From a virus (Duplodnaviria > Heunggongvirae > Uroviricota > Caudoviricetes), in the IMG/VR virus record IMGVR_UViG_3300025853_000035, positions 64,001 through 128,000 of that record: 64,000 bases of DNA, one strand, 5' to 3'. The notes beneath the pieces are model-generated. The model ran no database searches. It was given only the letters and a program-made list of their open reading frames with translations, and had not been told where the DNA came from. Each line of letters begins with the position of its first letter. Position 1 is the first letter of the stretch. Position numbers and translations under genes: made by a program. This document shows positions 1-64,000 of this stretch, piece by piece.

Positions 1-11
1 GAACCGCTCCC

Positions 12-92
12 TTAGAGGGATGAACTACAATACTGGCTCTGCCAGTGTAGTTGGGTCAGCGTAAGCTGATGCAAGGCGGTCGTTGTGAACAT
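12..92 (-). CDS. Leader peptide L3 (26 aa, MFTTTALHQLTLTQLHWQSQYCSSSL), putative attenuator peptide
   Basis: Hand-translated; ATG lies 7 nt after the TATACT -10 box (leaderless); 23 of 26 residues are T/L/H/Q/W/S/Y/C. Confidence 0.8.
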   Translation of the reverse strand: MFTTTALHQLTLTQLHWQSQYCSSSL

Positions 93-99
93 GGCGTGG

Positions 100-128
100 A
101 GTATATTCAAACTTTACAGTGATGTCAA
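100..128 (-). promoter_or_regulatory. sigma70-type promoter of the L3 operon
   Basis: TTGACA (128-123), 17-bp spacer, TATACT (105-100), T-rich upstream. Confidence 0.85.
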
Positions 129-159
129 ACAAAAAATGACATTAGGTTGAAAATAGTTC

Positions 160-237
160 TGGAACCCCGTGAGGGATTCGAACCCCCGACCCTGCCGGTA
201 GAAGCGGCGCGCTCTTGATCCGCTGAGCTAACGGGGT
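160..237 (-). tRNA. tRNA-Arg(TCT)
   Basis: Cloverleaf folded by hand; anticodon loop CTTCTAC, TTCGAAT T-loop, encoded CCA. Confidence 0.93.
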
Positions 238-245
238 GTGATGTC

Positions 246-319
246 TGGTGCCGAGTGCCGAATCGAACGGCCTCTCTCGCGTTTCAAACGAGCGCTTCGA
301 CCTGCAAAGCTTACTCGGC
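246..319 (-). tRNA. tRNA-Phe(GAA)
   Basis: GCCGAGT/ACTCGGC acceptor stem, loop TTGAAAC, TTCGATT T-loop, CCA; T-stem short. Confidence 0.82.
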
Positions 320-327
320 ATAGAGGG

Positions 328-408
328 TGGAGCCGCTGACAGGATTCGAACCTGCATTTGCATCCAGTTACCTTTCTCTCCGTTCGTAGCGGAGGGGGTT
401 ACAGCGGC
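328..408 (-). tRNA. Atypical D-armless tRNA-Arg(ACG)-like RNA
   Basis: Perfect 7-bp acceptor, CTCCG/CGGAG stem with loop CTACGAA, canonical T arm and CCA, no D arm, ~22-nt extra region. Confidence 0.7.
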
Positions 409-416
409 ATTGAAAC

Positions 417-494
417 TGGTCTCGCCGACGGGATTCGAACCCGCATTGACCTGCTTGAAAGGCAAGGTTCTTAGGCCATTTAGAAGACGGCGAG
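417..494 (-). tRNA. tRNA-Glu(TTC)
   Basis: Cloverleaf; loop CTTTCAA; CCA. Confidence 0.93.
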
Positions 495-495
495 A

Positions 496-570
496 TGGTA
501 GCGCATGGGGGAATCGAACCCCCGTCTCAGGCTTGAGAAGCCCGTGTCCTGTCCGCTAGACGAATGCGCC
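496..570 (-). tRNA. tRNA-Glu(CTC)
   Basis: Cloverleaf; loop TTCTCAA; CCA. Confidence 0.92.
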
Positions 571-577
571 ATGGAAA

Positions 578-653
578 TGGCGAGAACGACGGGGTTCGAA
601 CCCGCGACAACCAGATAGACAATCCGGTGCTCTACCAACTGAGCTACGTTCCC
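578..653 (-). tRNA. tRNA-Asp(GTC)
   Basis: Cloverleaf; loop TTGTCTA; CCA. Confidence 0.93.
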
Positions 654-659
654 ATATGC

Positions 660-735
660 TGGAGCAGACGGCGAGGATCGAACTCGCGCTGCCGGAGGGT
701 GGAAACCTCCCGCTCTACCGCTGAGCTACGCCTGC
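660..735 (-). tRNA. tRNA-Gly(TCC)
   Basis: Cloverleaf; loop TTTCCAC; CCA. Confidence 0.93.
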
Positions 736-748
736 ATTGCATAAAAAC

Positions 749-823
749 TGGAGCGGGCAACGGGGTTCGAACCCGTGTCTCTGGACTGGCAGACCAGTGC
801 TCTTCCTACTGAGCTATACCTGC
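749..823 (-). tRNA. tRNA-Gly(GCC)
   Basis: Cloverleaf; loop CTGCCAG; CCA. Confidence 0.93.
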
Positions 824-1200
824 ATTTGCCTTTTCTGATGAGGATACAATCGGCTGGTGTAACCCATTTCCGCGTATGTCTTCCGGCGGTGACAGTTCGC
901 GCACCGGACGACACACTTATTGATCTCCTCGATCAGTCGAGGTAACTTTGTTCCGTCTCTGACTGCCTTAGAGACATTGAACTCCTTGGTGGCCCGATCG
1001 ACATGATCAAACTCAAGGACGATTATGTCATCTTCCCCACAGTCTATGCACGGGTGCTTGCTGAGATAGTCGATAACGTATTCTTGCGCTAACTGCCTAC
1101 GAAGAGCTTGCGCCTCAGCGGTGACTTTCCGCATCTTGGCACCGTTCTCGGCATAGTAGTTTTTCGCATAGGCACGTTTCGCCTCATCATCCCAAGCCAA
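814..1200 (-). CDS. HNH endonuclease inside the tRNA operon
   Basis: CIDCGE...LEFDH...CANCH motifs; likely TTG start at 1200 after AAGGAG; the longer ORF-track N-terminus overlaps tRNA-Lys. Confidence 0.85.
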   Translation of the reverse strand: MAWDDEAKRAYAKNYYAENGAKMRKVTAEAQALRRQLAQEYVIDYLSKHPCIDCGEDDIIVLEFDHVDRATKEFNVSKAVRDGTKLPRLIEEINKCVVRCANCHRRKTYAEMGYTSRLYPHQKRQMQV

Positions 1201-1217
1201 GCTGTCTCCTTTGTGTT

Positions 1218-1293
1218 TGGTGAACCGGGTGGGCCACGATCCCACAACCTTCGGGTTAAAAGCCCACTGCTCTGCCAATTGAGCTACCGGTCC
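1218..1293 (-). tRNA. tRNA-Lys(TTT), non-canonical T-loop
   Basis: Cloverleaf; loop CTTTTAA; T-loop ATCGTGG; CCA. Confidence 0.88.
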
Positions 1294-1307
1294 AAAGACC
1301 GGGAACA

Positions 1308-1341
1308 ACGAAAAACGCCCCACCGGGGGCGGTAGGGCGTC
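1308..1341 (-). terminator. Intrinsic terminator inside the L1 operon (putative attenuator)
   Basis: 11-bp stem ACGCCCTACCG/CGGTGGGGCGT, CCCC loop, followed by TTTTCGTT. Confidence 0.8.
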
Positions 1342-1359
1342 TAAATATCGATGCTGATT

Positions 1360-1435
1360 TGGAGGATCGACTGGGGCTTGAACCCAGCACCTGCGGAGTA
1401 AGAATCCGCCGCTCTACCTACTGAGCTATCGATCC
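1360..1435 (-). tRNA. tRNA-Lys(CTT)
   Basis: Cloverleaf; loop TTCTTAC; CCA. Confidence 0.92.
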
Positions 1436-1471
1436 GCTAAAACAGCACCGATAGCTAGGAGCACTACCGGA

Positions 1472-1534
1472 TTAGAGGCTAAAACCTCGTTCGCCGCGTT
1501 CCCGGCGATCTCGTTTGAATCCGAAGCGTTCCAT
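1472..1534 (-). CDS. Leader peptide L1 (20 aa, MERFGFKRDRRERGERGFSL), putative attenuator peptide
   Basis: Hand-translated; residues 2-18 are all E/R/F/G/K/D, the amino acids of the ten downstream tRNAs; AGGA...GAG upstream. Confidence 0.85.
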   Translation of the reverse strand: MERFGFKRDRRERGERGFSL

Positions 1535-1584
1535 GGTAGGTCTCAAAAAATCCTGTGAGGCATAATTGCCGTGAATGAAGCCGA

Positions 1585-1613
1585 ACTATACACAGCGACA
1601 GTCTGGCTGTCAA
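1585..1613 (-). promoter_or_regulatory. sigma70-type promoter of the L1 operon
   Basis: TTGACA (1613-1608), 17 bp, TATAGT (1590-1585). Confidence 0.85.
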
Positions 1614-1653
1614 CAAGAAAATTCAGAAAGGCGAACTTTTTTTTCCGGCCCGG

Positions 1654-2175
1654 TCAGAACCAGCAGTCGTTGAAGCATTGCTCCGCGATCTCGCGGTGCG
1701 TGGGAAAGCACAGATCAGCGACCTGCTCATACTCAGTGAGGAGGCCGAACTCCATGTTCTCCGGGCACAGCCGAAGCCGCTCATAGTGCCCGGCGGTCAG
1801 CACCCATGGGTTACGGAATACCGCCATCGTCTGCGCGCCGCCCGCTACCGGATAGCTCTGCACATATTCGAGGCTGTCGGCGGTTATGGTCCGGCCGGTC
1901 TCTTCCAGCCACTCACGACAAGCGGCTTGTTCGAAGGACTCACCGCGATTGACATGCCCGCCCAAGAACGCCCAGCCGCCACGGTGAGGCTCGATCGCCC
2001 GCCGGGCCATGAGAAGACCGCGCCGGCCGATGCCGACGCGAACCCGCTGGAGAACGACGACGACACCGGTGGGACTTCCCCACGTCATCGCCGAGCAGCC
2101 GGGGCACTTCATGGGATACTCGTGATCCACATGAGCCGTCCCGCAGGTCGAACAGAACAAATCCATCACGCTCAC
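1654..2175 (-). CDS. NUDIX hydrolase with N-terminal zinc ribbon
   Basis: GGHVNRGESFEQAACREWLEETG Nudix box; CxxC...CxxC. Confidence 0.9.
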   Translation of the reverse strand: MSVMDLFCSTCGTAHVDHEYPMKCPGCSAMTWGSPTGVVVVLQRVRVGIGRRGLLMARRAIEPHRGGWAFLGGHVNRGESFEQAACREWLEETGRTITADSLEYVQSYPVAGGAQTMAVFRNPWVLTAGHYERLRLCPENMEFGLLTEYEQVADLCFPTHREIAEQCFNDCWF

Positions 2176-2552
2176 TTTCTATCGTCCTGCTGACGATGCA
2201 GCATCTCGCGGATCGCCGCGAGGTCGTTCTTGATCTGCTCCTGCTCAGCATGGGTGAACGCATCACTATCCACGATCAGCTTGGCCGACATGATTGCCGT
2301 CATCACGGGAAAGGCGAAGCCCGGCCCGAAGTGCATGAGGAAGATAGCCACCCCTCGGCCGACCACCGTGACGGGATACATATCGCCGTATCCTGTCGTG
2401 GTCGCGGTGGTGAAGGCCCACCACAAGGAATCGCCAATCCCATATTTGGCTTCGGCCAGATCAAACAGCCCGGCGGCGAGGACCACGACAATGCCGTAGA
2501 CGATCGCGACGGTCAGGAAGCTCCGGCCGAGGAGGTGGACTATCTTTCTCAT
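2172..2552 (-). CDS. Two-TM potassium channel (KcsA-like)
   Basis: TM helix - WWAFTTATTTGYGDMYP pore motif - TM helix - short coiled coil. Confidence 0.92.
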   Translation of the reverse strand: MRKIVHLLGRSFLTVAIVYGIVVVLAAGLFDLAEAKYGIGDSLWWAFTTATTTGYGDMYPVTVVGRGVAIFLMHFGPGFAFPVMTAIMSAKLIVDSDAFTHAEQEQIKNDLAAIREMLHRQQDDRK

Positions 2553-2806
2553 CCCAAACCTCGCTCGCTGAGAAGGATTTTCTGGACGGACTGACCCACC
2601 ACCGAAAGGCGGAAGGTCCGATAGCCGTTATCGCTGCGAGGCCCCTCCTCGACGAGCGCCGGCCGCCGCAGCGTGTCCTTGGTCAACCGGATCGCACAAG
2701 ACTCGCTGCACCCGAGGATGCAGAAGTTCTCGTCGAGGTTGATAACCGTCGAAATTTGGCTGCGCTTGAGGCGGCCGGCGATGGAGGCGGGCGAGACGGG
2801 GGCCAT
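2549..2806 (-). CDS. Hypothetical protein
   Basis: Tightly coupled to both flanking genes in the operon. Confidence 0.5.
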   Translation of the reverse strand: MAPVSPASIAGRLKRSQISTVINLDENFCILGCSESCAIRLTKDTLRRPALVEEGPRSDNGYRTFRLSVVGQSVQKILLSERGLG

Positions 2807-2810
2807 CGCG

Positions 2811-3614
2811 TCAGCCCCCGATCACATGCGGCACGAACTTTGCCGTGTTGCTCGTGATGAGGCCGTCCTCGCGGATGCCGATACCGCACGGCTCGCCATC
2901 AACGATCCAGCTACCGATCACCGGGAAGACGCCGGGCGCGGTTTCCGGGAGACGATACATCTCCTGATAGACGTGCCCTTCCTCGCCGTAGTCGCCGCCG
3001 GTGGCCGCCAGCACATCACGATCCACGATCTCGATGTTGGCTCCCTCACGAGCCAGCAGCGGCTTCTTGACATAGGAGCCGGTCGCCGGCTTCTCGAAGC
3101 TGCTGTGGAGCAGGAAGGGGTTGCCGGGATCGAGCTTGGAGAGCAGGGGCAGGATGCCCTTGTTGCTCCACATCATCTTCCAGATCGGCTCCAGCCAGAC
3201 CATCGTATCGACGCTGTTGAACACGGCGTCGGCGTAGTCCTCGTTGACCAGCCATTCCCACGGGTAGAGTTTGAACAGGGTCGTGATGACCTCTTCGTCC
3301 AAATCAACGAAGCGCCCATCAGCCGACAGACCGATGTCTTCGATGAGGATGACCTTCGAGCCGATACCGCCGGCTGCTGCGGTGTCCCGCAGATAGGCGG
3401 TCGTCACGGTGTCTTCACCGGCATCGTCGAAGAAATGCGTGAAGTGCATTTCGCCGTTGGGGAGGAAGGGGCGGATGTCCGCCCACTTGGTGACCAGATG
3501 CTCGTGGATGGAGTTGAACTGGTCGAGGTCCGGGAAGACCTGCTCCTTCCAGCGCCACTGGATCACCGAGGCTTCCAGCAGCGAGGTCGGGGTGTCGCAA
3601 TTGAACTCGAACAT
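2811..3614 (-). CDS. Glutathionylspermidine synthase-like ATP-grasp ligase (YgiC/YjfC family), C-terminal part
   Basis: EFNCDTPTSLLEA, FKLYPWEWL, LEPIWKMMWSNKGIL, KKPLLAREGANI, PVIGSWIV motifs; frame opens at the G6 tract 3670-3675. Confidence 0.88.
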   Translation of the reverse strand: MFEFNCDTPTSLLEASVIQWRWKEQVFPDLDQFNSIHEHLVTKWADIRPFLPNGEMHFTHFFDDAGEDTVTTAYLRDTAAAGGIGSKVILIEDIGLSADGRFVDLDEEVITTLFKLYPWEWLVNEDYADAVFNSVDTMVWLEPIWKMMWSNKGILPLLSKLDPGNPFLLHSSFEKPATGSYVKKPLLAREGANIEIVDRDVLAATGGDYGEEGHVYQEMYRLPETAPGVFPVIGSWIVDGEPCGIGIREDGLITSNTAKFVPHVIGG

Positions 3615-3633
3615 CTTGGGTTCGGTCCGGCCG

Positions 3634-3960
3634 TCATAACCGAAGTCGAACCGGCCGTAGTTGAGGGCAGGGGGGTTCCTGATCCCACGCCCGGCGGATG
3701 GCGGCGTGCGCCTTCTGCGGGATGCCCATCTTCGTCAGCCATTCCCCGCTCTTGTCCCCGACGATGACATCGCCGGCTGCAAGCAGGAGGTTGTAGACGC
3801 TGCGGGTGGCCTCATCGAACAGGTCGATCTCGCCCGGCGCGAAGGAATAATAGGTTCCCTCCCGCCAGTAGGGATCGACGCCGTCGGTGTGCCAGATCAG
3901 TCCGTCATCGGCGACGGCCTGCTGCCAGTTGAGGCGCTGGGCGACCTGCTTACGGATCAA
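3634..3960 (-). CDS. Glutathionylspermidine synthase-like ligase, N-terminal part (frameshifted)
   Basis: R.NWQQ...YWREGTYYSF N-terminus typical of the family; removing one C at GAACCCCCCT joins it to LNYGRFDFGYDG. Confidence 0.82.
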   Translation of the reverse strand: MIRKQVAQRLNWQQAVADDGLIWHTDGVDPYWREGTYYSFAPGEIDLFDEATRSVYNLLLAAGDVIVGDKSGEWLTKMGIPQKAHAAIRRAWDQEPPCPQLRPVRLRL

Positions 3961-4346
3961 CCGCCGACACTCCCGAATGCCGACTTACCGAAGCCGCCGC
4001 GCGAGACAGCCGCCGCACGGGTCACGGACGAGGAAGCCGGGGCGTGGAAGTAGGTGGCACCGGGCGTGCGAGCGAAGCTGCCGCCACGCACCGGATCGCC
4101 GTGATAGGGGACTGCGGCCGACTTGCCGAGGTAATACCACATGAAGGCGTTGCCGGCTCCGCCGCCACGGTTCTGCTGGCAATAGCTGTCAGGCACGCGG
4201 CGCTTGTTCTTGTCGGTGCAGACCGCCGTGTTGCGGTCGGAATAGACGTTGTAGGACTCGTCCCACTGGTTGGCCGGGCGGCCACAGGCGCTTACCGCCA
4301 ACGCTGCTGCCAGCGTGGTGGTCAGCAGAAAAGACTTCTTCCGCAT
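3957..4346 (-). CDS. Lipoprotein, YgiB/DUF1190-like partner of the ATP-grasp ligase
   Basis: Signal peptide with lipobox VSAC; Gly/Ser/Arg tail SRGGFGKS; sits directly upstream of the YgiC-like gene. Confidence 0.75.
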   Translation of the reverse strand: MRKKSFLLTTTLAAALAVSACGRPANQWDESYNVYSDRNTAVCTDKNKRRVPDSYCQQNRGGGAGNAFMWYYLGKSAAVPYHGDPVRGGSFARTPGATYFHAPASSSVTRAAAVSRGGFGKSAFGSVGG

Positions 4347-4417
4347 AGTGATTCCCTCTGAAATTGTGAGTGAATCGCTGATACTTTAGAGACGCATAAT
4401 GTCAAGTAAAAATGACT

Positions 4418-4450
4418 GTGCCGCGAAACCTCAAAGAGGCTCGCGGCACA
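4418..4450 (-). terminator. Hairpin closing the L2 tRNA operon
   Basis: TGTGCCGCGA/TCGCGGCACA inverted repeat right after tRNA-Ile. Confidence 0.55.
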
Positions 4451-4460
4451 TGGAAGGGTA

Positions 4461-4534
4461 TGGTTGTTCTGGGAAGAATCGAACTTCCATCTGCCGATTA
4501 TCAGTCGGATGCACTACCGTTGTGCTACAGAACA
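4461..4534 (-). tRNA. tRNA-Ile(GAT)
   Basis: Cloverleaf; loop CTGATAA; CCA. Confidence 0.92.
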
Positions 4535-4543
4535 TCAACCAAA

Positions 4544-4621
4544 TGGCTGGCGTAGCTGGATTCGAACCAGCCTCAATCTCGGTTAACAGCCGAGCGCCTT
4601 CACCTAGAAGACTATACGCCA
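4544..4621 (-). tRNA. tRNA-Asn(GTT)
   Basis: Cloverleaf; loop CTGTTAA; CCA. Confidence 0.9.
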
Positions 4622-4628
4622 ATGAAAC

Positions 4629-4704
4629 TGGTGGAACAGGAGGGGATCGAACCCTCTACCTCCGGGGTGCAAAGCCGACGCTCTCCCAAGTGAGCTACTG
4701 CCCC
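4629..4704 (-). tRNA. tRNA-Ala(TGC)
   Basis: Cloverleaf; loop TTTGCAC; G3:U70 pair; CCA. Confidence 0.93.
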
Positions 4705-4816
4705 ATAAATCTGAGGGTCGGAAGGTTCCCTACTCCGCCGCCGAAGCGTGCGTAAGGGTCAAGGTTATCTCCCGGTTGCCTCTGCTCGCCAATGTTGTCC
4801 CGAGCAGACCCAAAAC

Positions 4817-4892
4817 TGGTGCTTCGTGTAGGTCCTGACCCTACGGCCTTCCGCATGTCATACGGATGCTCTACCAACTGAGCTAACGAAGC
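4817..4892 (-). tRNA. tRNA-Val(GAC), non-canonical T-loop
   Basis: Cloverleaf; loop ATGACAT; T-loop GTCAGGA; CCA. Confidence 0.85.
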
Positions 4893-4901
4893 ATATTCGG
4901 T

Positions 4902-4976
4902 TGGTGCTCGATGGAGGGACTGATCCTCCGGCCTCCGGCATGTGAAACCAGCGCTCTACCATTAAGCTAATCGAGC
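4902..4976 (-). tRNA. tRNA-Val(CAC), non-canonical T-loop
   Basis: Cloverleaf; loop TTCACAT; T-loop ATCAGTC; CCA. Confidence 0.85.
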
Positions 4977-4986
4977 ATGTTGAAAC

Positions 4987-5057
4987 TGGTAGCAGTGAGA
5001 GGATGTGCGCCTCTGGGTAGCAGGCTTATGAGGCCCGCCCCGAACTGATCCACTGCT
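4987..5057 (-). tRNA. Atypical tRNA with CAT anticodon (Met or Ile2), no D stem
   Basis: AGCAGTG/CACTGCT acceptor; GCGGGC/GCCTGC stem with loop CTCATAA; AGAGG/CCTCT T-stem with loop CGCACAT; CCA. Confidence 0.68.
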
Positions 5058-5064
5058 ATGAAAC

Positions 5065-5141
5065 TGGTCTAGCTGGCAGGATTTGAACCTGCGACCTCAC
5101 CCGTCCGAGGGGCACACGCTACCAGACTGCGCTACAGCTAG
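5065..5141 (-). tRNA. tRNA-Pro(CGG)
   Basis: Cloverleaf; loop CTCGGAC; CCA. Confidence 0.92.
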
Positions 5142-5147
5142 ATGAAA

Positions 5148-5223
5148 TGGTCAAGGTGGCCGGGATCGAACCGACGACTTCCTGCTCCCAAAGCAGGCGC
5201 TCTACCAACTGAGCTACACCGAG
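5148..5223 (-). tRNA. tRNA-Pro(TGG)
   Basis: Cloverleaf; loop TTTGGGA; two acceptor-stem mismatches; CCA. Confidence 0.85.
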
Positions 5224-5255
5224 AAACGAAAAAGGGCCGCTTTCGCGACCCTTTC
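5224..5255 (-). terminator. Intrinsic terminator between leader L2 and the first tRNA (putative attenuator)
   Basis: 10-bp stem AAAGGGTCGC/GCGGCCCTTT, GAAA tetraloop, TTTTTCGTTT tail. Confidence 0.85.
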
Positions 5256-5286
5256 GAAAAATCCCTTATGAGACGAGACGACCGGG

Positions 5287-5379
5287 TCAGTCGTCCTTCG
5301 TCGGGAGCGCGCACGCAATCACGGCCGGGACCATATTGGCCGGCGCTGCGATCATGTTGATGGCGGGAATGTTGCGCAT
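5287..5379 (-). CDS. Leader peptide L2 (30 aa, MRNIPAINMIAAPANMVPAVIACALPTKDD), putative attenuator peptide
   Basis: Hand-translated; residues 3-22 are all N/I/P/A/M/V, the amino acids of the eight downstream tRNAs; AGGA...GAG upstream. Confidence 0.87.
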   Translation of the reverse strand: MRNIPAINMIAAPANMVPAVIACALPTKDD

Positions 5380-5428
5380 GGGAAGCTCGTGAAATCCTGA
5401 AAAGCGGAGAACCGCTGTTGAAGTCCGA

Positions 5429-5457
5429 ATGATAATTGAAACTTGACTGGATGTCAA
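5429..5457 (-). promoter_or_regulatory. sigma70-type promoter of the L2 operon
   Basis: TTGACA (5457-5452), 17 bp, TATCAT (5434-5429). Confidence 0.85.
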
Positions 5458-5479
5458 GAGAAAAATTACACTGGCTATG

Positions 5480-6490
5480 AAGACACTGAACCTCGCGAAT
5501 ACGCGGGTTAGGTCGCATGTCGGGTAGTTCCGTCGGTCAACGGCTCAGCATCTACAAAGCGAGTGAAATTGTGGTCGGCTTGCTGGCACCAATCCAGAAG
5601 ACAGGTCCGCAGACCTGACCAACCAACCACGGTGATGAATATAGACAGGCTGAGACTACACCCGTTGCGATCTGTCGTTCGGAGGATTACGGAACCCTTG
5701 CGAGGCACCTTGCCACCTTATCCACCAAGCCCTCTTGCGAGTAGCCCGGTCCCAGATCAACGCCGCCTATTTTTCCCGATTCTCACGGGGCCGCTGGCAT
5801 TAGCGGCGACACTGCATGATATTCGGCGATTCCCAGACCGTTGACGTGTTACCGCCATTAAGCCCCCGCGACGGGGCAACGAACTTTCTTTCACCAACCA
5901 CTCTTCGCTTTGCCGGCTAGGAGCAGACCGCATTGGGCGAACCCTGCGGTATTAGGCGTCTTTCACATACAGTCGAAGCAATCTTTGCGTTTTGATATGA
6001 ACTGCTGGGTTCGAACCAGCGATCCACGGATTAAGAGTCCGTTGCTTTACCACTAAGCTAAGTTTGCAAGCCACCGAGACGAGCTACCTCCTAGTTCCAC
6101 TGATGTTTCCACCTGCGGAATGCTAGTCGCCTCATGTCCGTCATGTCGCTAAACACTACCAAGACCGTCGAGCAGGACCTTCACCCTACCAAACTGATCA
6201 TTGCTCTTGACCGCTAAGTCTTGAACTGATGACCTTGTGCTTTATCATCCGCTGCCGCAGGTTAGACACAAGCTCCGGGTTCTACTCCGGCGTTCGAGGT
6301 CACCGATCTGGCTCTCCTCTATCCCCTCAAGGGCCTTGTCCTGCTAACAGCCTAGCTCCCGTTACCAGAAGCGATCCTCGCGGACCTGACTGCACTTGCT
6401 TGAATTGACCGGCAAGCCGGCGGAGTTATGTGGCCATACCTCCTTTACGTTGGTTACCCAACGCTATCCCCCTCAAGCGGGGTGTTCCTG
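5480..6490 (-). ncRNA. Large structured non-coding RNA candidate (GOLLD-like), boundaries approximate
   Basis: ~1 kb with no credible ORF, own promoter, many hairpins, embedded tRNA-like fold, next to tRNA operons. Confidence 0.6.
5993..6067 (-). tRNA. tRNA-Lys(CTT)-like element embedded in the large RNA
   Basis: Canonical D arm, ACGGA/TCCGT stem with loop CTCTTAA and TTCGAAC T-loop, but mismatched acceptor stem ending TCA instead of CCA. Confidence 0.7.
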
Positions 6491-62927: not shown

Positions 62928-63362
62928 TTAGCTCACCTGTTTTCTTGGAGGGGATCGCCGTCCGCCACCGCGAGGCGGGGAGTGGGACGGAGGAGGAGGG
63001 GCTGGGGTGGTTTTGTTTTCCCGTTCCGATTTCTCGACGTAAGCCTTCATCCAAGCGGCATCGAGCGCGTCGAGGAGTCGAAGGAGCCGTTCCCGCTCGT
63101 TGAGCGTGGTGATGCCTTTCAGTCGGCAGTAGGCTTCGATTTCGATATAGGAGAAGGGGAGGTAGCCTCCCATGCCGGCCACGGGGCGGCGGGCGTTTAG
63201 ATCGGTGAAGGCTTTCCACACCCAAAAGAGGTGCGGCGAAAGCACTGGTTCGTCCTCAAGGGTCTTGACCCTGATCCCTTTTTCCTCCTGAACCTTCCGC
63301 AGCCACTCCGAATTTTTCGAAGTGGTGCGGGAGGACCAGTTCAGGTAGGCGATCAGTTTCCC
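62928..63362 (-). CDS. Tail assembly chaperone, -1 frame extension (gpT-like)
   Basis: The -1 frame is open from the GGGAAAC slippery site to 62928. Confidence 0.8.
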   Translation of the reverse strand, partial: GKLIAYLNWSSRTTSKNSEWLRKVQEEKGIRVKTLEDEPVLSPHLFWVWKAFTDLNARRPVAGMGGYLPFSYIEIEAYCRLKGITTLNERERLLRLLDALDAAWMKAYVEKSERENKTTPAPPPPSHSPPRGGGRRSPPRKQVS

Positions 63363-63757
63363 TCGTCGGCCTCGGCCTTGGCGGCTTCGAAGGCCGCGTC
63401 ATTGGAGGCCATGCGGATGATCAGGGCGAAGAAGCCTTCCAGCTTCTTGTCGCTGAACAGCGCCTTGGCGTTATCGACGGTGAAGGCGATGTCTTCCTTG
63501 CCGCCGCGATCCTTGATGCCGGTCCAGCCCTTGACGATGTGTTCGGCATAGAAGCGGACGTTGAGCGCCTTGTTCTCTTCCTCGGTCAGCTTGCCGCCGG
63601 CATTGAGGCGCGGGCTGTAAGGCTCCATCATGCGCTCAAAAGCGCGCCGGGCCTTTTCGCCGCCCATCGGCAGCAGCGTGATCGAAGCCGTGTCGCTCAG
63701 CGGGAACGTCTTCGGGGTGTCTTCGAGGTTACGCTCAAATGCTTCGTAAATATCCAT
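63353..63757 (-). CDS. Tail assembly chaperone (gpG-like)
   Basis: Upstream of the tape measure gene; IVKGWTGI; ends G GGA AAC TGA. Confidence 0.85.
   Translation of the reverse strand: MDIYEAFERNLEDTPKTFPLSDTASITLLPMGGEKARRAFERMMEPYSPRLNAGGKLTEEENKALNVRFYAEHIVKGWTGIKDRGGKEDIAFTVDNAKALFSDKKLEGFFALIIRMASNDAAFEAAKAEADEGN
63356..63362 (-). promoter_or_regulatory. Programmed -1 frameshift site G GGA AAC
   Basis: X XXY YYZ heptamer immediately before the chaperone stop. Confidence 0.82.
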
Positions 63758-64000
63758 GTCGGGTATTCATCCTTGTCGGGGAGGGGTGGGGACGGCCTCC
63801 CGACAAGGCCGCCCCCGTTTCGCCAGCGAAAATTGATGTCGGGAAAGCTGGTAAGGCGGAGGTCGGCTCCGCCAATTCGGTGGGGGCGGTCAGCCGCCGG
63901 GAAGTTCTTCGGGGAGGTGGTCAGCCACCGGGAACGTCTTCAATGAAGGCGCTCCCGGCATCCTCTCGGAGGATCAGCCGCGCCATTACAGCGCGGTGAT

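Follow-up and report, generated by a model that had tools for sequence, protein, structure and literature searches.

The enterobacterial leader-peptide transcription attenuators, trpL, hisL, pheL, thrL, the multivalent ilv leaders and pheST, are the described systems closest to the arrangement analysed here, which lies at the head of the first of three tRNA arrays in a phage genome. As in those attenuators, a short open reading frame (ORF) rich in the codons that would be sensed is accompanied by an intrinsic terminator and by a predicted antiterminator sharing a strand with the terminator, the stop codon is placed so that a finishing ribosome would cover the antiterminator strand, and the energy gaps between the computed states are small. 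In contrast to the enterobacterial systems, the genes that would be gated are phage tRNA genes, so that the sensed quantity would be the product itself, six amino acids would be sensed at once, there is no conserved ORF-internal partner of the "1:2" kind and the predicted default is ON, and ~110 nt containing a complete, clamped tRNA separate antiterminator strand 2 from strand 3.

Two further classes of RNA element invite comparison. In the rRNA stalks that carry the RNase III sites around 16S and 23S rRNA, the flanks of a stable RNA pair into an extended helix that carries the mature RNA at its end, a topology that recurs here with strong covariation; here, however, a single tRNA is enclosed, and the predicted stalk overlaps the terminator/antiterminator choice and starts directly after an ORF. 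T-box riboswitches likewise stand upstream of translation-related genes and let the status of a tRNA govern the choice between terminator and antiterminator, whereas the present locus has no specifier loop and its sensing would proceed via the translating ribosome, not by binding of uncharged tRNA. An Rfam scan (E up to 1) of positions 1-6000 of the window, by which we mean the whole 64,000-nt stretch of DNA analysed, returned no T-box match. A full-text search of the published literature found no description of tRNA genes controlled by a leader peptide and none of an attenuator enclosing a tRNA, and the paper on Sphingobium phage Lacusarx describes the tRNA region of that phage without leaders or attenuators (PMC5648845). 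What appears to be new at this locus, as judged by that search, is the enclosed tRNA together with the covariation evidence for a clamp helix around it and for the antiterminator.

The window corresponds to bases 64001-128000 of a 151,382 bp phage genome represented by a single contig. This contig is phage-like and belongs to a phage of sphingomonad bacteria, with Erythrobacter phage XM05, Sphingobium phage Lacusarx and Erythrobacter phage vB_EliS-L02 (L02) as relatives. The genome carries 28 tRNA genes, all on the minus strand and grouped in three arrays, each of which is preceded by a near-consensus sigma-70 promoter and an ORF of 20-30 codons (hereafter L1, L2 and L3). Features given below by window position lie on the minus strand. 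Behind the terminator, array 1 runs in the order tRNA-Lys(TTT) (1218..1293), an HNH gene, Gly, Gly, Asp, Glu, Glu, an odd Arg(ACG)-like RNA, Phe and Arg(TCT). No promoter-like site was found between the terminator and tRNA-Lys(TTT), which is the first gene past it and reads the AAA codon of L1. The HNH endonuclease gene (814-1200; PHROG 2255, E 2e-26) is probably a homing-endonuclease insertion in the putatively gated operon, since the tRNA-Lys(TTT) and tRNA-Gly genes that it separates are adjacent in XM05, Lacusarx and L02. The odd tRNA-like RNA (331-408; Rfam tRNA, 32.8 bits) was missed by ARAGORN and combines an Arg(ACG) anticodon arm with an almost absent D arm and a long extra region; a normal tRNA-Arg(ACG) occupies the corresponding position in XM05, Lacusarx and L02, and in the present genome this RNA would be the sole reader of the six CGN codons in L1.

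Several other features were observed around the arrays. A partial GOLLD RNA match at 5647-6068 (107.6 bits, below the gathering score of 150; model positions 110-416) was clipped by the search range, and a tRNA-Lys(CTT)-like gene at 5994-6068 lies within or beside it, an arrangement also seen in XM05. Array 2 contains two structured-looking gaps of ~90-110 nt without a detected tRNA (4705-4816 and 4977-5064), where XM05 has sequence too, and similar gaps occur in array 3 at genome positions 63273-63369 and 63731-63891. A glutathionylspermidine-synthase-like gene (2811-3960) is split into two ORFs, of which 3634-3960 corresponds to Pfam GSP_synth positions 1-84 and 2811-3614 to positions 102-371; a frameshift, a split gene or a sequencing error could be responsible. 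Two products are encoded in the interval 1654-2552, just upstream of the array 1 promoter: a minimal ion-channel protein of 126 aa (Ion_trans_2), and a NUDIX hydrolase whose N-terminus bears a zinc-ribbon-like motif.

The head of array 1 (unit 1) had been singled out in an earlier note made from the letters of this DNA, and every feature listed there, namely the promoter, L1, tRNA-Lys(CTT), the terminator and the further tRNAs, was recovered in place on the minus strand. The sigma-70-type promoter P1 (TTGACA-17-TATAGT, 11/12 match; 1585..1613) is followed by L1 (1472..1534, stop codon TAA at 1474-1472). One nucleotide past the stop begins element A (CCGGTAGTGCT; 1460..1470), the 5' strand of the predicted antiterminator. 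Element B (CTATCGG; 1448..1454) pairs locally with A and has alternative partners in E3 and in the tRNA 5' strand; it is overlapped by E5 (1439..1453), the 5' strand of a leader-trailer helix that has tRNA-Lys(CTT) (1360..1435; 66 bits, CCA encoded) at its tip and whose 3' strand, E3 (1346..1360), starts at the final A of the CCA. The terminator (1339-1311) lies downstream of this tRNA and consists of a G+C-rich stem of 10-11 bp and a T-run, made up of the 5' arm T5' (CGCCCTACCG; 1330..1339), a loop (1329-1326) and the 3' arm with its T-run (CGGTGGGGCG; 1311..1325, with the arm at 1325-1316 and the T-run at 1315-1311). T5' is common to the terminator and the antiterminator, and the two are mutually exclusive, with 1339-1330 shared between them. 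The E5:E3 helix of the window leads on to A:T5' through an additional CTAG/TTAG step (1458-1455 with 1344-1341). We read unit 1, with somewhat more confidence than doubt, as a ribosome-sensing, trp-like transcription attenuator of the tRNA array with a functional tRNA-Lys(CTT) built into its antiterminator.

Pattern scans of viral, metagenome and genome collections, together with three isolates, yielded 12 distinct unit 1 sequences, the window included, which were compared in a single alignment (A1). The order promoter, ORF, tRNA-Lys(CTT), terminator, tRNA-Lys(TTT) is kept in 12/12 of them, as are a P1-equivalent TTGAC(A/C)-16..18-TAnnnN site at the same place, the tRNA-Lys(CTT) gene itself, upstream of the terminator, and the placement of A, which starts 0-1 nt past the L1 stop. 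Mean pairwise identity is 0.91 in the ORF core, 0.89 in A, 0.85 in T5' and 0.77 in the tRNA, and falls to 0.30-0.50 in loops and linkers. One of the homologs stems from a bacterial draft assembly: a Lacusarx-like contig of Sphingobium sp. MK2 (L162; NZ_JAZDXA010000011.1, 126,565 bp) carries the whole L1 unit and is probably a co-assembled phage or a carried phage genome.

The composition of the leaders mirrors the arrays that they precede. L1 has 20 codons (MERFGFKRDRRERGERGFSL), and 17 of its 19 post-Met residues belong to the amino-acid set of array 1 (Lys, Arg, Asp, Glu, Gly and Phe; binomial P 3e-6); in L2, Pro, Val, Ala, Asn and Ile make up 20 of 29 residues (binomial P 2.5e-5). A forecast based on L3, made before looking outside the window, named Thr, Leu, His, Gln, Ser, Trp and Cys tRNAs, and array 3 as then seen in the genome bore it out, with Ser, Leu (three), Thr, His, Gln (two), Ser, Cys and Trp (binomial P 8.5e-10). 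Each of the three leaders matches its own array and not the other two, a diagonal pattern repeated in XM05, Lacusarx and L02, and only these three reach such fractions among the 483 ATG-started ORFs of 18-35 codons genome-wide. The frame, start and stop of L1 are kept in 11 homologs, with all five gap runs 3 nt long, and its Lys codon is AAA in 12/12 sequences, read by the putatively gated tRNA-Lys(TTT) and not by the ungated tRNA-Lys(CTT). The kept frame suggests, indirectly, that L1 is translated.

Some properties of L1 count against the attenuator reading. Its Arg codons are CGN, whereas the intact tRNA-Arg of the genome is that with anticodon TCT; the ORF core is better conserved at the nucleotide level than the tRNA (91% against 77%); and in most homologs the Shine-Dalgarno-like AGGA lies 8-18 nt from the L1 start. 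The codons AAA CGA GAT CGC CGR GAA GGC .. GAA CGA GGT TTT (1479-1516, A1 columns 43-77) are almost invariant even synonymously across the 12 sequences, and codon content alone leaves this near-invariant core and its fixed codon order unexplained. The core also contains a hairpin (TCGCCG/CGGCGA; 1491..1508) that appears in the folds and is invariant, so that no covariation signal is possible. Near-invariance at synonymous sites, invariant hairpins in the ORF and poor Shine-Dalgarno spacing in several homologs would all suit a switch operated by RNA alone, in which L1 stays untranslated and is conserved for RNA structure or for a bound factor, or else an L1 product acting in trans as a basic and acidic peptide; the A/T5' choice would then respond, for instance, to tRNA folding, RNase P or a protein instead of to ribosome position. 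We regard this as very improbable, given that gaps are exclusively in frame, that start and stop are conserved, that one homolog (L037) has AAGGAG 8 nt ahead of a GTG start, that A covaries with T5' at a fixed distance from the stop, and that in each of three distinct leaders the composition reflects the array behind it.

Alignment A1 served for counting covariation, with a recount on the 12 sequences; the references were slide controls and permutations in which entire 3' strands were exchanged between sequences, and rows L02 and L009 are shifted by one column in E3. The terminator has 97% of its cells paired and three compensatory columns. A:T5' is 89-90% paired and also has three compensatory columns, with double-sided changes of the types C-G/G-C, A-T/G-C and C-G/T-A and one mismatch kept universally. 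The A:B stem is 99% paired with one compensatory column, pairing of B with tRNA positions 4-12 is 94% paired with three, and the E5:E3 helix (1453-1439 with 1360-1346) shows double-sided changes in 8 of its 15 pairs. In the permutation test, which ignores relatedness and whose values are not probabilities, the counts were 0/2000 for E5:E3, 1/2000 for the terminator, 1/2000 and 6/5000 for A:T5', 40/2000 and 82/5000 for A:B, and 182/2000 and 177/5000 for B with the tRNA. Without preset definitions, RNAalifold recovered the A:B stem, E5:E3 in its distal part, the cloverleaf and also the terminator. RNAduplex energies of E5:E3 range from -15 to -23 kcal/mol in 11/12 sequences, a value reached by 0-3 of 200 shuffles each.

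Taken by itself, the window has the weakest A:T5' duplex of the family (-12.2 kcal/mol), and 187/1000 dinucleotide shuffles of the spacer are as good. The duplex beats its shuffles in the 10 homologs tested (0-17/1000), that is, in 10/11 sequences when the window is included. A:T5' is therefore real, with a beyond-chance status that becomes visible only through the relatives: the window alone lies within chance, the homologs above their shuffles. The earlier note had pointed out that CGGTAGTGC (1469-1461), just after the L1 stop, pairs at 8/9 positions with GCCCTACCG (1338-1330) in the 5' arm of the terminator; this pairing is present, and the competition of the post-stop element for that arm proved to be conserved and covarying, with pairing kept across homologs by compensatory changes at three positions. 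The local stem CCGGTAG/CTATCGG described there is likewise present and corresponds to the conserved A:B. A 9-bp match between AGCTATCGG and TCGATAGCT at the 5' end of the tRNA exists as well, with marginal support from covariation and with the L009 lineage breaking the pairing, of which it keeps just six of nine pairs. The suggestion that the tRNA is a structural part of the switch stands as far as topology goes, the tRNA lying inside it, but this comes about chiefly through E5:E3 and not through the tRNA's own pairing with B. The leader-trailer helix around the tRNA is the key piece that was absent from the earlier note.

That this helix is the best-supported one of the locus and is compatible with the terminator raises the alternative of a processing stalk combined with a fixed, leaky terminator. 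On this account E5:E3, extended by A:T5', would serve to excise tRNA-Lys(CTT), for instance by RNase III, the terminator would merely fix the ratio of the first tRNA to the rest, and L1 would be non-regulatory. The helix reaches the acceptor stem and includes the CCA end, which would call for cleavage before RNase P acts, and E5:E3 together with the terminator forms the full-length minimum-energy fold in 9/12 sequences. Against it, A:T5' covaries despite excluding the terminator, and a stalk needs neither an A element placed 0-1 nt past a conserved stop in 12/12 sequences nor an ORF whose frame is kept and whose composition mirrors the tRNAs behind the terminator. We consider a pure processing role rather unlikely on this balance.

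A different origin for the paired strands was considered: E3 resembles the tRNA 5' strand, and A, E3 and T5' might have been remnants of an older nested or split tRNA gene, but A:T5' is unlike tRNA acceptor or D-arm geometry. The A:B stem with the T-rich run after it was flagged as terminator-like but rejected as a second terminator: 5 nt separate the stem from the T-run, which belongs to E5. The stem is a possible pause site.

Folding of transcripts of defined length separates the two outcomes. In transcripts ending three bases past T5', the minimum-energy fold comprises the cloverleaf, E5:E3 and 8-9 A:T5' pairs in 12/12 sequences, and the mean antiterminator pair probability with no mask is 0.71-1.0. 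Masking ~24 nt around the L1 stop codon brings this probability to 0.00, and a mask on the KRDRR codons leaves it at 0.94-1.0, so that in the masked folding model a ribosome on the stop abolishes the antiterminator and one upstream spares it, as the earlier note had proposed. At full length, the terminator fold, which includes E5:E3, is that of minimum energy in 9/12 sequences, as noted above, and the energy of the forced antiterminator differs from it by -7.4 to +8.1 kcal/mol. In this model, the small gap between the full-length states is of the kind expected of a kinetic switch.

The minimum-energy folds hinted at an ORF-internal "region 1" that would pair with A. As a conserved feature it was rejected on the evidence of shuffles and placement: duplexes of A with an ORF-internal partner of the trp "1:2" kind are no better than shuffles in 9/11 sequences, and their positions are unconserved. 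The conserved local partner of A is B, downstream of it. In the length series, B is first paired with A or with the tRNA 5' strand and then with E3 once E3 exists, and A is freed before T5' emerges.

The strength of A:B allows a switch of reversed sign to be envisaged. Translation to the stop would melt A:B and send B to the tRNA 5' strand or to E3, and a ribosome that then left quickly would leave A free and raise read-through, while a stalled or absent ribosome would leave A locked in A:B and so favour termination. Near-complete pairing of A:B across the family, the fact that the minimum-energy folds of XM05 and L009 pair A with B up to the appearance of E3, and the marginally supported pairing of B with the tRNA all fit this scheme. 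In all four sequences followed, however, B is with E3 in the minimum-energy fold before T5' appears, so that A is freed without a ribosome; such a switch would moreover amount to positive feedback, with fewer tRNAs under slow decoding. Reversal of the sign therefore seems to us quite improbable.

Under the attenuator reading, the response, its sign and the timing role of the tRNA would be as follows. Transcription from P1 would produce, in order, L1, A directly past the stop, B/E5, the tRNA, E3 and the terminator. Once the tRNA folds, E3 would take E5 and strip B from A, and the freed A would capture T5' on its emergence, lengthening the same helix, so that the terminator hairpin would come too late. 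By setting A beside T5', E5:E3 would make of the antiterminator a single interrupted helix of ~24 bp with the folded tRNA at its tip and A:T5' as a coaxial extension. RNA polymerase would then continue into tRNA-Lys(TTT) and the Gly, Asp, Glu, Arg and Phe tRNAs. A ribosome that had finished L1 and stood on or near the stop would cover A, the terminator would form, and transcription would end after tRNA-Lys(CTT).

Since L1 is composed of codons that the tRNAs behind the terminator read, slow decoding would keep the array ON and a good supply would turn it OFF. Its position before the terminator would let tRNA-Lys(CTT) escape this control, with which the exclusive use of AAA as the Lys codon of L1 agrees. 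The ~110-nt tRNA module, with ~145 nt from A to the decision point, would give a ribosome time to start and finish L1 without a dedicated pause; that ribosome, or a follower, would need still to cover A 2-3 s after reaching the stop. As A has no conserved ORF-internal partner, an untranslated leader should read through, which predicts a default of ON and no super-attenuation. On the best reading, the role of the tRNA is thus that of spacer and helix tip.

A more elaborate role for the embedded tRNA, as an active part of the switch in which one RNA would be product, timer and regulator, appears to us unlikely. Its synthesis time would act as a clock for the ribosome finishing 20 codons, its 5' strand would briefly take B from A, and maturation of tRNA-Lys(CTT) from the clamped stalk would be coupled to the ON/OFF state. 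B and E3 track acceptor-stem changes in three lineages (the window, L02 and L162), which would follow from capture of B by the tRNA 5' strand.

Unit 3 (window 12-128 and genome 63840-64012) consists of L3, tRNA-Ser(CGA) and a terminator, an order of genes shared by six phages. The start codon of L3 lies only 7 nt past the -10 box, so L3 is leaderless or nearly so; the same holds for L1 in a metagenomic homolog of unit 1 (L035). A hairpin stands right after the L3 stop and shows a compensatory change in Lacusarx, and its loop, CTGACGC, is complementary to the terminator arm GCGTCAG; the folds are unstable. No leader-trailer helix was found in unit 3, and the pairing of loop and terminator arm is without covariation. 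A search of viral contigs with the pattern CTGACGCGCCRCTCC returned mostly chance matches, with L066 as the sole new unit 3.

The idea is directly testable because unit 1 occurs in two cultured phage-host pairs, Lacusarx with Sphingobium sp. IP1 and vB_EliS-L02 with Erythrobacter litoralis DSM 8509, and the 12-sequence comparative set amounts to a ready-made collection of compensatory mutants. The enclosed tRNA suggests that a folded RNA domain can lie within a working attenuator when a clamp helix closes around it, which would offer a design principle for RNA engineering. Leader-peptide attenuation is a textbook means of controlling amino-acid supply, and this phage appears to apply the same logic to the supply of tRNAs, so that the speed of decoding would feed back directly on the transcription of tRNA genes. 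If this is true, it would explain how large phages dose their tRNA arrays, and it would enable them to respond to depletion of host tRNAs, including that caused by anticodon nucleases.
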